Source: Flaccisagitta enflata
Taxonomy: Eukaryota
NCBI GenBank assembly: GCA_965153355.1
Contig: OZ231126.1
Location: forward strand, 3,720,001-3,784,000
Direction of reading: 5' to 3'
DNA: 64,000 nt
How positions within the stretch are numbered: position 1 is the first letter of the stretch; the number at the start of each line of letters is the position of its first letter. The notes under the pieces are model-generated. The model saw only the letters and a list, made by a program, of their open reading frames with translations, was not told where the DNA came from and made no database searches. The position numbers and the translations under genes were made by a program. This document shows, in pieces, positions 3,388 to 63,763 of this stretch.

Positions 3388-6300
3388 TCAAAAGCCGTAT
3401 TTGGCCTGCGTTTGTCTCTTCGTTTGGGCGTTGGCAGACCATTGGTTCTTAAGCAGTTGTTCCCGCTCTTTAGCTTGAAAAGCGAGATACGTGATTTGAT
3501 GTTTGCGTTTGGAGACGGTAGAAGGACCCTCGCCTTTCTTCGGTTGAGGACGGTAACCAGATTCGCCAGCGGCGGATAACTCCCGTAGAAGATTCTCCTG
3601 TTGAGTTGTAAAAAGGATTCAGTCACGATAAAAGATCCGGTACATAGATAGGCGTAAAATTAGGTGTCAAATACAGACCGACCATACAACGGACTAACCC
3701 ATCTGGCAGACTTATATCTGGCTTATGACCGACCTATATCTGGCTTATGACCGACCTATATCTGGCTTATGACCGACAAAATACACTCGGCAAACAGACT
3801 CATATGTAATTATCACCGATTGACACACACGCCATCCGGAGCCGGGGAACCGAATGCAATCAGAAAAAAAAAAACAACCCACTTCCCCAAGCAGTCAAAC
3901 CTGTATTTCGCTGGTGCCTCCCAGGGCCGAGTCCGCGTTGACGTCGACGATGTCCAACCCGTCCAATTCTTTGCCTCTGACTTTCTGACTGCCGGCCAAT
4001 TTGGCCAAACTGAGTTGCTCGGATTCTTCCTCGCTCATCGAGCTTGTCAAGGACACATCCTGAATAGGTGACAATTTAGCTTTTAAGTCCAATACCACCA
4101 CAAGCTACTTTGCAATTTAGCTTTTAACTCCAACACCACTTCAAGCAGTAGCTCATGAACATACGGACACCTATTAAGAAGCAACTTTGGAAAGGCCCCG
4201 CTCCGATGTGAACAGATGAATTTTTGACCCAAGATTGGTCCTAATGGTCCTATTTCAAAGAACTATTTTCAACTTCTCAAACGCTACCAAATTAAAATTG
4301 AGGTCAAAATTTGCTCTCTTAGTCTAGGTGCAGCTCGCCTTTCCAAAGTTGATGCTTCCTTCAGCGACAGTATATATTTTGAAGTGACAGTATATCTATG
4401 AGCTAGATAGTAATAGCTTAATATTTGACAGAGCCGAAAAAAATTGTAGAATCGTACACCAGAGGTAACGTAGACACACGTCTGCAAGAGGTCTGTAAGA
4501 CACACGTCTGTAACGGGTGAAGTTCACTTTCGCTTTCTCAATATCTCACGACGTAAATTTAGCAGAATATATGAAAGTTATATCAGAGATCATTCACCTG
4601 AGAATCAGCCATATTATACATTTGAGCGTAACTCATCGACGAAGAGGCGGCGTGGGAGGAGGAGGAGGAAAAGGAGGCGGCTGAAGAGGAAGAAGAAGAA
4701 GAATCCGGAGCAGTTTGACGTTGAGACTGGAAAGGAGATGGAGATATGCCTTTGGTGTTAAACGAAAGCGGGTATTGCTCGGGATCGGGATGAGAGACTT
4801 GAAGTCGTTTAGGGGCCGGAATCGAAGGCAGGTCGACGCGTGGATGAGATGAGTCGGAACCTGGTAAAGGAGGAAGGAGAATGAGTGATAATGTACACTT
4901 GAAATCGAAGGCACGTCGACGCGTGGATGAGATGAGTCGGAACCTGGAAAAGGAGGAAGGAGAATAAGTGATAATGCACACTTGAATCGAAGGCACGTCG
5001 ACGCGTGGATGAGATGAGTCGGAACCTGAAAAAGGAGGAAGGAGAATAAGTGATAATGCACACTTGAATCGAAGGCACGTCGACGCGGGGAAGAGATGAG
5101 TCGGAACCTGGAAAAGGAGGAAGGAGAATAAGTGATAATGCACACTTGAATCGAAGGCACGTCGACGCGTGGATGAGATGAGTCGGAACCTGAAAAAGGA
5201 GGAAGGAGAATAAGTGATAATGCACACTTGAATCGAAGGCACGTCGACGCGTGGATGAGATGAGTCGGAACCTGGAAAAGGAGGAAGGAGAATAAGTGAT
5301 AATGCACACTTGAATCGAAGGCACGTCGACGCGTGGATGAGATGAGTCGGAACCTGAAAAAGGAGGAAGGAGAATAAGTGATAATGCACACTTGAATCGA
5401 AGGCACGTCGACGCGTGGATGAGATGAGTCGGAACCTGGAAAAGGAGGAAGGAGAATAGGTGATAATGCACACTTGAATCGAAGGCACGTCGACGCGTGG
5501 TAAGATGAGTCCGAACCTGGAAAAGGAGGAAGAAGAAATAGTGATTATGTGAGCTTGAAGTTGTTTAGGGGCTGGAGTTGAAGGCACATCGACGCGGGGA
5601 AGAGATGAGTCGGAACCTGGAAAAGGAGGCAGGGGAATGAGTGATAATGTACACTTGAAGTTATCTGTTATCTACTGTTATGATAAAAAATTGAATTGCA
5701 ACTGCTCGAGATCAGTCTTTGGTCTATTTGCTTCACATGTTGCCTTTACCTTTCTCTCTACAGATGTAAAGACTTCTCTGATATTTTCCTGTCCATAAAA
5801 ACTCATTCTCCTCCCCATTTCGAAACCCTTTGTAGATTACCTCCCCCAACCCCCACACAACCCCCGCCGGGGGAGGAAACTCAACATAATACGCCCCCAC
5901 AAATTTTCTTACCAAGTGAAAAGAAGTTGGATTCAGTTTGTTCGGCGGTTGTTTCCGCGGGTCGCTTCCCGGAAGTGGACTTGGATGTTGTTGACGCTTT
6001 TGTGGTTGTTGATGTTGTTGTTGTTGTTGGTTTCTTTGTCAAGATGTGTGGAATCAGCGGACGCTTCTCCATTTTAGTCTCGGAAATGTTTTTGGGTTTC
6101 GGTAAAAGGGCGAAGAGACCGCTGCCTGTTTGGAGGGGAAAGGGGGAGAGGGAGGGAGGGAGGAAGGGAAAGAAAGAAAGAAAGAAAGAAGAAAGACAGA
6201 CAGACAGACAGAAAGAAAGCAAGAAAGAAAGAAAGCAAGAAAGAAAGAAAGCAAGAAAGAAAGAAAGGAGGAAAGAAAGGAAGGAGGAAAGAAAGAAACA

Positions 6301-63100: not shown

Positions 63101-63763
63101 CGCCGAATGCGCGAATCCCGATCACGTTGCGAGGTTGGAGGCGATCCACCAGAAACCCGCAACAAGCCTCTTTCACAGACTGAAACACGAGGAGAGAGTA
63201 AGTGACCATTAAGAGAAAGACAATCCTTGAGCAGCTTGAGGAAGTGGTACCTAATCAGCAAACTTCTATTTTATGTAAGCTTTGATCAATGACGTTCCTG
63301 GCTAACAAACCACGCATGATTTCAACAAGTGACGTGGGGTCACAATATGGTCGCGGATGGGTGGGCAGGGGCATCCAACCCCCACTCCACACACACAAAA
63401 AGTATCTAAATTTTTTTTTTCACTTTCTGACTCGATCACGACGGACGAACGGACGGAGGGGCAAAGCCTCTCACAGTTGCGTGTCCGCAACAAAAAATGT
63501 ATTTGAGTCTTATTCTTGCAATGGCTTCTTGTACTTTTCGTCTAGCATTCATCGTTTAAGACGGTTCACTAAGTGTACATTGTCTTGTGTCCATTACCTT
63601 TAAACCTGTAAATATCATGTCTGGTGTCCATTACCTTTAAATTCAAATAGGATGCGCCGACCAGCAGCGACTGTACATTGGACATGGTTATATGGACTTT
63701 TCCAGAATAGGCGAAATTCACGAGGGACTCCAATGCATCGGGTTCTATACTGGAAATGGTTAT
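57117..63763 (-). CDS. KLHL18: Kelch-like protein 18 (BTB-BACK-Kelch), 3' ten exons; 5' end outside the window
   Basis: Exons 63763-63635, 63179-63036, 62291-62015, 61449-61351, 60605-60394, 59963-59841, 59469-59288, 59012-58935, 57905-57793, 57274-57117; phase-consistent. LVNFAYSG (BTB), EEQVF...[25 protein letters not shown], kelch [14 protein letters not shown] repeats, C-terminal HEGGVGIG. Confidence 0.93.
57282..57474. mobile_element. MITE inserted in the polypyrimidine tract of the last KLHL18 intron
   Basis: AGGGCGTGTTTCTAGT / ACTAGAAACGCCCCC; GAAGC duplicated (57277-57281, 57475-57479). Confidence 0.75.
61415..61753 (-). repeat. 49-bp perfect tandem array (6 copies plus two 21-bp sub-copies) of a KLHL18 acceptor plus exon start
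   Basis: tgtcatttatgcag|ATTACCATTTAATGCCGGAGCGGCGTCCTCGCCTT; GGCGAGG at 61417, 61466, 61515, 61564, 61613, 61662. Confidence 0.95.
62350..62900. repeat. Long (GA)n/(GACA)n microsatellite
   Basis: Direct reading. Confidence 0.95.

Follow-up and report, generated by a model that had tools for sequence, protein, structure and literature searches.

Probable mirage-type minisatellites at splice junctions and one stop codon of three genes in Flaccisagitta enflata

Tandem arrays at the splice junctions of three genes

Tandem arrays lying across exon boundaries were characterized in a window of 64,000 nucleotides of Flaccisagitta enflata (GCA_965153355.1, contig OZ231126.1, positions 3,720,001 to 3,784,000 of the forward strand). 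The window means this whole stretch, and all positions below count from its first letter. Six splice junctions in PSMC2, a PRCC-like gene and a KLHL18-like gene carried tandem arrays with units of 49–95 bp in 5–11 assembled copies, 81–100% alike, and a further array, the seventh, was built alike and lay over the stop codon of the KLHL18-like gene. It is very likely that these arrays are minisatellites of the type called "mirage" in amphioxus. They were found by Tandem Repeats Finder (TRF) plus direct reading of the minus strand, and the result bore out the tandem arrays that an earlier reading of the letters (the original prediction) had reported at splice junctions of these three genes. The arrays, together with the insertion that splits one of them and two weaker cases, are as follows.

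4819..5662, minus strand: acceptor array of PRCC-like exon 5 (TRF 82 bp × 8.9, 96%, superperiod 246)
10778..11157, minus strand: array C, acceptor of PSMC2 exon 8 (73-bp units, 95–98%)
11522..12407, minus strand: array B, acceptor of PSMC2 exon 7 (TRF 95 bp × 9.5, 86%)
13458..14125, minus strand: distal part of array A, donor of PSMC2 exon 5 (69–75-bp units, nine decoy donors)
14126..15100, no strand assigned: palindromic (foldback-like) insertion splitting array A (975 bp)
15099..15232, minus strand: proximal part of array A (true donor 15207 and one decoy)
16567..17130, minus strand: array D, donor of PSMC2 exon 2 (TRF 90 bp × 4.8, 85%)
56717..57185, minus strand: array over the KLHL18 stop codon (TRF 79 bp × 5.9, 92%)
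61415..61741, minus strand: KLHL18 acceptor array at the exon at 61449 (TRF 49 bp × 5.8, 100%, plus 21 bp × 3)
7597..7638, minus strand: diverged second copy of the PRCC-like exon-3 donor region (single, 42 nt, 83%)
63581..63641, minus strand: two-copy duplication over the KLHL18 donor 63635 (about 22 nt, spacing 37; weak case)

The six junction arrays shared one build. The unit at one end contained the true junction and was continuous with the remaining exon, and the other units extended into the intron, each repeating the splice signal and part of the exon. The exon part measured 23–83 nt, a share of 0.32–0.92 of the unit. Two arrays (D and A) involved donors and four (B, C, PRCC and KLHL18) involved acceptors. 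The exact gene models agreed with the original prediction that four of the 14 PSMC2 junctions were affected. An intact splice site had been claimed for every unit; AG or GT was in fact kept at 39 of the 41 decoy sites, the exceptions being two acceptors of array B (AA and GG).

Among the acceptor arrays, the PRCC unit consisted of about 40 nt of intron and 42 nt of exon, with the true acceptor at 4860, nine intronic decoys upstream of it, and all ten acceptors intact. The unit of array C contained 40 nt of intron and 33 nt of exon (true acceptor 10807, four decoys), and that of array B about 57 nt of intron and 38 nt of exon (true acceptor 11558, eight decoys plus a partial distal unit). The KLHL18 unit had 14 nt of intron and 35 nt of exon, with the true acceptor at 61449 and five identical decoys; its 21-bp sub-repeat contributed two further CAG/ATTACC sites (the slash marks the junction here and below). 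For the donors, the unit of array D held about 83 nt of exon and 7 nt of intron, and the true donor at 17053 (CAG/GTCAGT) was accompanied by five decoys with GTAAGT, GTTAGT or GTGAGT. Array A had units of 23 nt of exon and about 50 nt of intron, 81–92% alike, with ten decoys in all.

The insertion in array A was covered over its whole length by nested inverted arms of 43–146 nt, 81–95% complementary. The original prediction had named a transposon as the interruption; the 975-bp palindromic insertion was confirmed, no transposase was found in it, and it may be a transposon. As a separate observation, no transposase frame was seen in the intronic palindromes at 14126–15100 (arms up to 146 nt, 91–95%) and 6730–8700, which look like foldback elements or template-switching products.

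Eight arrayed junctions had been listed originally, and six of them stood. The duplication at 63581–63641 had two copies only and was missed both by TRF at a score of 50 and by the 36-mer test described below. The second copy of the PRCC-like exon-3 donor region gave a 21-aa match in tblastn; it was single and not tandem, lay 1154 bp from the true copy at 8751–8792, and formed the centre of the 2-kb palindrome at 6730–8700 (inverted arms up to 437 nt, 99%).

The locus specificity of the units, as proposed originally, was supported within the window: blastn with the units of all seven arrays gave no match beyond the array of origin. Hence no unit recurred at unrelated loci of the window, as a dispersed repeat or a transposon-borne satellite would. 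In addition, a scan of genome contigs with the 19-nt core of array B returned one match, in a bacterial metagenome-assembled genome, which was treated as chance.

Another repeat adjoined a junction of the KLHL18-like gene. A G-rich array of 29–57-bp units at 60616–60929, pyrimidine-rich on the gene strand, stopped 10 nt short of the acceptor at 60605 on the upstream side. It left the junction out and resembles a polypyrimidine tract that has expanded.

An array over the stop codon

The array at the end of the KLHL18-like gene was built as the junction arrays were, without a splice junction. Its unit comprised about 60 nt of the last codons, including TAA, and 19 nt of downstream sequence; the true stop lay at 57119–57117, and five more copies followed downstream of the gene. 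Likewise, the C-terminal peptide together with its stop was found five times beyond the gene by tblastn. Because such an array exists, the factor common to the seven arrays is the border of the coding sequence and not splicing.

Gene models

Exact models were made for the three genes carrying the arrays.

3388..10243, minus strand: PRCC-like gene, seven coding exons, 550 aa; the GT-AG model is one open frame
10663..21054, minus strand: PSMC2 (26S proteasome subunit 7), eight coding exons, 435 aa; exact GT-AG model
57117..63763, minus strand: KLHL18-like gene, last ten coding exons, 504 aa; 5' end beyond the window

Every modelled intron was GT-AG, and each of the three models formed one open frame. 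The exons of the PRCC-like gene were placed by tblastn with protein P0001, and its first exon matched two PF10253 (PRCC) proteins. The PSMC2 model was identical to protein P0050 at 426 of 435 positions, and its best match among named species was Mytilus edulis (91.7%); the protein is so conserved that it does not serve to place the animal. For the BACK exon of the KLHL18-like gene, the best named relatives (a nemertean, sharks and bryozoans) were 50–54% identical. Searches for all three genes thus turned up nothing close under a species name. A metagenome scan with P0050 showed, among the best 80 of 556 relatives, no locus of F. enflata or a near relative; the top one was 89% identical, and all were full-length PSMC2 of other eukaryotes, intron-poor or mRNA-like.

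Public PSMC2 gene models of other species, P0003, P0004 and P0005 (a EukProt entry, Magallana gigas and a contaminant in Acipenser), had exons 2–3 or more twice. The doubled exon-3 peptide of these models was considered as mirage units and rejected, being whole-exon duplications or assembly errors.

Enrichment at coding boundaries

For the enrichment null, arrays were collapsed to one unit, unit-length segments were placed randomly, and segments wholly within coding sequence were excluded. In the three modelled genes, all seven strong long-unit arrays (unit at least 40 bp, TRF score at least 200) straddled a coding boundary, compared with 1.43 expected (P 1.3 × 10−5). When units of at least 25 bp were admitted, 7 of 11 arrays did so (P 3 × 10−4), and with units of at least 18 bp, 7 of 19 (2.1 expected, P 2 × 10−3). 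Over the whole window, the strong long-unit arrays straddled a boundary in 7 of 10 cases (0.97 expected, P 4.5 × 10−6). The three off boundaries were a 312-bp duplication at 40016–40646 and a 69-bp satellite at 45196–46112 and 53889–55163.

The background of the introns was different in kind. Outside the seven arrays, 21% of the intronic bases of the modelled genes were tandem repeat, nearly all with units below 40 bp, and these short-unit repeats never straddled a coding boundary. Only 122 of 15,864 other intronic bases lay in an array with a unit of at least 40 bp, and that array was of low complexity. Furthermore, extra self-copies were carried by the 36-mers at 7 of 50 boundaries (14%), compared with 3 of 400 intronic 36-mers outside TRF arrays.

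The long-unit arrays were thus concentrated at coding boundaries, with which uniform duplication plus tolerance alone fits poorly. The original prediction had offered two explanations, a mutational focus on exon boundaries and a high duplication rate met by a tolerant spliceosome. The latter, taken alone, fares badly for the reason just given. The former keeps the concentration of long-unit arrays at coding boundaries and loses part of its splicing focus to the stop-codon array. The enrichment over random placement that was expected of such arrays held in the three modelled genes for long units (7 of 7 against 1.43) and was absent over all repeat classes.

Splice site choice and the cost of decoys

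The site adjoining the intact exon is likely to be the one spliced, judging from the reading frames. Models using the exon-adjacent sites yielded intact conserved proteins. In addition, P0243, a metatranscriptome-type protein in the same 90% cluster as P0050, agreed with the PSMC2 model at 432 of 435 positions, gap-free over the seven exon joins. The source contigs of P0243 were at most 1633 bp long, and the PSMC2 locus spans 10.4 kb, so the contig must be intron-free. Most simply, P0243 would derive from a message of F. enflata or a sister species in which splicing joins exactly these exon ends.

The use of decoys would be costly. Read-through past the true donor met a stop after 29 codons in array D and after 5 codons in array A, and the four decoy acceptors of array C reached stops within 20–23 codons. 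The acceptor units, of 95, 73, 82 and 49 nt, were not multiples of three, so decoy use means a frameshift or an early stop. Moreover, the true sites were not the strongest. In array D the true donor was GTCAGT and the decoys offered GTAAGT and GTGAGT; the true tract of the PRCC array was TTTACCAG, compared with TTTTCCAG in a decoy. Since the true sites were not the best matches to the consensus, position, not strength, must decide. A choice by position in F. enflata would be consistent with exon definition and, by analogy, with the work on human F7 described below.

Recursive removal through AG/GT sites had also been proposed. The original count of five AG/GT junctions among the eight listed was right, and four of the six confirmed arrays had AG/GT. 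However, this was no excess over the three genes as a whole, in which 18 of 22 donors and 7 of 23 acceptors, or 25 of 45 junctions, read AG/GT. Array B read CAG/GC and the KLHL18 acceptor array CAG/AT; dual sites with AG/GT in every unit were therefore not what was found, and recursive removal is not a general way of coping with the arrays.

Origin and turnover of the arrays

TRF reported superperiods of 246 bp in the PRCC array, 144–219 bp in A, 176 bp in C and 185 bp in D. Superperiods of two or three units, together with near-identical interior blocks, indicate amplification by unequal exchange. In arrays B and C the likeness to the true copy rose toward the exon, and in B the three exon-nearest units shared the TTA codon of the exon, with TTG in the distal units. 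The G+C content was 51.8% in exons, 40.9% in other intron sequence and 46–57% in the arrays.

The exon-derived and intron-derived parts of the decoys were compared as a test of constraint. Their likeness was 0.86 and 0.83 in D, 0.85 and 0.89 in B, 0.88 and 0.88 in C, and 0.95 and 0.90 in PRCC, respectively; the values for A (0.89 and 0.72) were blurred by unequal unit lengths. No consistent difference between the two parts was found in this comparison, and no sign of constraint or disabling. The ages of the arrays ranged from perfect (KLHL18) to 81% alike and interrupted (A). This range, with one array split by an insertion, was in agreement with the differing ages noted originally, and it fits continuing birth and decay.

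On the account favoured here, a segment of 49–95 bp across a coding edge would undergo tandem duplication, and the copies would then multiply into the non-coding side. In a genome very prone to repeats, slippage during replication or a template switch may produce the first duplication, and unequal exchange of blocks of one to three units would follow. The splicing machinery would pick the site adjoining the intact exon, which would leave the arrays harmless, and selection would purge arrays within coding sequence. A mutational bias toward exon borders is the best reading of the long-unit excess: long-unit duplications would begin where a conserved exon meets a fast-changing flank, and break repair or template switching might be the means. 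Splicing chemistry is an unlikely cause because a stop codon is also affected. The arrays are probably without function, and the account as a whole (mirage structure, origin, splice choice, lack of function and location) is somewhat better than evenly likely to be right.

An origin from reverse-transcribed lariat intermediates, suggested by the intron parts of the acceptor units (57, 40, 40 and 14 nt), was considered and dropped, as it does not fit the donor or stop arrays.

Comparison with known systems

Tandem repeats spanning intron-exon boundaries have been described in amphioxus. The term "mirage" comes from Canestro et al. 2002, as cited in the available parts of PMC3087553 and PMC3902484. 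According to the former, mirages occur in Adh3, a retinol dehydrogenase, presenilin and the globins BflGb6 and BflGb9; the latter adds PGBD5 and troponin C, also in amphioxus. The available part of PMC3087553 gives units of 10–160 bp, 81–100% alike, at both 5' and 3' boundaries, most but not all of which keep the AG or GT; copy number varies among haplotypes, and the mRNA is spliced normally. The mechanism is called unclear there, and the phenomenon possibly general in cephalochordates.

The arrays of F. enflata resemble these mirages in their head-to-tail units of minisatellite size (49–95 bp, 5–11 copies), in a unit that spans the exon-intron boundary with the transcribed copy as the end unit (six arrays), in affecting both donor and acceptor sides, in the signals kept by most units (39 of 41), and in homogenised interior and divergent edge units. 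Normal mRNA, as made in amphioxus, is predicted for F. enflata as well. They differ in density, which is higher (4 of 14 junctions of one gene) than in the published cases compared, as far as the available text describes them, and in the stop-codon array, for which the available text on amphioxus has no counterpart. The animal is also a different one: the only Branchiostoma entry among the 120 KLHL18 matches listed was KLHL20, at 46%, whereas for a Branchiostoma the databases should contain proteins that are nearly identical.

A similar arrangement has been reported in human F7, in which the 37-bp variable number tandem repeat (VNTR) of intron 7 places 5–9 identical pseudo-donors after the true donor. 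Only the most upstream site is used, as shown by 50 minigene constructs (PMC1557585, in the part available). As in arrays D and A, the first unit spans the exon-intron boundary. In contrast, F7 is a single mammalian locus with donors only, and in F. enflata the site used is predicted from open frames and P0243. Primate megasatellites over exon-intron junctions have units that include exon and intron and were read as recent formations (10.1101/2021.07.19.452908, in the part available). These have units of at least 90 bp, and their repeated exon parts are generally coding, in multi-exon repeat proteins, whereas in the present arrays a single copy codes, all others being intronic decoys. In human UBC, dual-specific AGGT sites in tandem repeats delimit coding monomers and are used stochastically (available part of PMC10809524). 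The tandem splice signals are alike, with the difference that AG/GT was present in four of the six arrays here, not enriched, and absent from two.

In the Rogers model, an intron is gained when an exon segment bearing AGGT is duplicated in tandem (cited in the available part of PMC3087553). The model shares with the present arrays the creation of extra splice sites from existing sequence by tandem duplication; in the model, however, the new intron is the duplicated segment alone, and no new intron was seen here. Each affected intron held unique sequence beyond its array, for example 16246–16566 after array D, and the relation to intron gain drawn in the original prediction is not upheld. Potato RdRp is said to be a case of intron gain by tandem duplication.

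The original prediction knew of no earlier description. The mirages (PMC3087553, PMC3902484), the F7 VNTR (PMC1557585) and the primate megasatellites (10.1101/2021.07.19.452908), as far as their available parts go, provide one. A search of full-text literature, with most subscription journals outside it, found no genome-wide junction test and no mirage report outside chordates. The arrays are therefore probably a known but obscure structure, at unusual density and, within the coverage of the databases, in a new lineage.

Weighing of alternative explanations

Several observations weigh against the account given above. When microsatellites and short-unit arrays were allowed, 61 of 400 random intronic 36-mers (15%) carried copies, compared with 7 of 50 boundaries. 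The boundary excess is confined to long units, and across all repeat classes junctions are not special. The enrichment statistics are post hoc, for a window chosen for the pattern, and concern 7–19 arrays only. The animal behind P0243 may lack the arrays. The gradient toward the true copy was present in only two of five arrays (none in D, A and PRCC), and arrays do not grow from the exon end as a rule. Finally, a start-site bias of long-unit duplications at exon edges would stand at about an even chance.

With these points in mind, uniform tandem duplication followed by a filter might suffice, coding cases being purged, boundary cases tolerated, and the window picked for them, so that chance and ascertainment would make up the rest. 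The genome is repeat-prone, as the 21% of tandem repeat among the intronic bases outside the seven arrays shows, and extra copies are about equally frequent at boundaries and in introns (7 of 50 and 61 of 400) over all repeat classes. The junction also falls anywhere within the unit (exon share 0.32–0.92), as random placement would yield, and the window was selected post hoc. However, the length-matched null was rejected (7 of 7 against 1.43, P 1.3 × 10−5, and still P 2 × 10−3 with all units of at least 18 bp), elsewhere in the introns, units of at least 40 bp were confined to a single low-complexity array (122 of 15,864 bases), and work on individual genes of amphioxus independently noted the bias toward boundaries (PMC3087553, available part). 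Uniform duplication is accordingly regarded as unlikely. An assembly artefact, through mis-joined haplotypes or over-expanded repeats, would be conceivable for the KLHL18 acceptor array, which is 100% identical over 5.8 units, so that its copy number is not checkable from sequence. However, diverged units (81–98%) that carry substitutions, indels and nested sub-duplications of their own are found in the stop array and in all but one of the six junction arrays, and array A is interrupted by the 975-bp insertion. Assemblers do not create such features, and an artefact is extremely improbable.

Selection could instead have kept the decoys, which might gather U1, U2AF or SR proteins, suppress premature intronic cleavage, or feed regulated nonsense-mediated decay. 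The intact splice dinucleotides at 39 of 41 decoys, also in arrays 81–86% alike, and the four arrays within one housekeeping gene would be in line with this. Against it, exon- and intron-derived parts diverge alike, two acceptors have decayed, the stop-codon array offers no splice site, and the range from perfect to decayed, with one array split, is as neutral turnover predicts; moreover, the amphioxus and F7 reports, in their available parts, describe no effect on normal splicing. Selected decoys are thus quite improbable. A strictly splicing-coupled origin or handling, with duplication triggered by the spliceosome or by R-loops and stepwise recursive removal at AG/GT, would account for the placement of six of the seven arrays at splice junctions, four of those six with AG/GT, and dual-specific AGGT sites are indeed used in human UBC tandem repeats (PMC10809524, available part). 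It has to contend with a like-built array over a stop codon, with the lack of an excess of AG/GT (five of eight, compared with 25 of 45 junctions), with arrays B (CAG/GC) and KLHL18 (CAG/AT), which cannot regenerate a donor, with the poor regenerated donors in C (GTCTGT) and PRCC (GTTCCG), and with donor decoys that have no acceptor to pair with. Such coupling is very improbable.

Other genes and repeats of the window

The window is animal DNA with a G+C content of about 42% and is rich in tandem repeats (150 TRF rows). Five genes were recognisable, on the minus strand throughout. Besides the three modelled genes, these were two that stood out as the clear matches in a family scan of ten open frames.

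near 23.4–24.8 kb, minus strand: BTB_2/KCTD-like gene (family match)
near 42.8–44.0 kb, minus strand: DnaJ (DNAJC5-like) gene (family match)

An Rfam search of the window gave no matches. Of 24 sequencing runs listed for sequence words of the window, a DNA run contained 0.60 of them and may be its source, another contained 0.21, and 21 indexed runs labelled as marine, seawater or plankton metagenomes contained 0.05–0.18; the last was a run of raw RNA reads. These shares are not evidence for habitat, expression or an independent occurrence.

Arrays of 69/138-bp units at 45196–46112 and 53889–55163, in the same orientation, flanked an 8-kb stretch in which a 10-bp satellite, TTATGTCTCT, faced its own reverse complement (50105–51113 and 51932–53431). 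The region 45196–55163 is a large composite repeat structure. A minisatellite of 20–21 bp with a GAGGCCTGAGAGGCC-type unit was found in both orientations at 19932–20162, 22883–23149, 30061–30325 and 35520–35831. It adjoined a conserved segment readable in open frames, by (GGAC)n-type tracts, and the two together are probably an element resembling a short interspersed element (SINE) with its own minisatellite.

At 27235–29943, an 850-bp CA-rich repeat ran straight into a 1.85-kb array with a unit of 15 bp (TCTCTCTTCCCTCTT × 123, 94%); this segment had the strongest strand skew of the window (GC skew −0.56). Besides the 312-bp tandem duplication (99%), the intergenic segment 40016–41800 contained another, larger duplicated stretch of about 890 bp, recognised from identical open frames at 40454–40651 and 41344–41541 and at 40883–41128 and 41773–42018.

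Biological significance

With up to ten equally good or better decoys beside the true site in essential genes, the arrays offer a natural test bed for the precedence of position over strength in splice site choice. Such arrays can also lead gene prediction and short-read assembly astray. That dense mirages, one of them over a stop codon, occur in a second and apparently unrelated animal points to a general process at the border of conserved sequence.

A genome-wide process of the lineage at the edges of conserved sequence, independent of amphioxus and forming an unrecognised class of mutation hotspot, is put forward only tentatively, as it is more doubtful than probable. If it operates, break repair or recombination in a very polymorphic genome could use the homologue only within conserved exons. 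A slip or template switch where homology ends would then produce long-unit duplications at exon-intron and stop-codon borders. In that case, the arrays would steadily supply new splice sites and give rise to intron sliding and poison isoforms.

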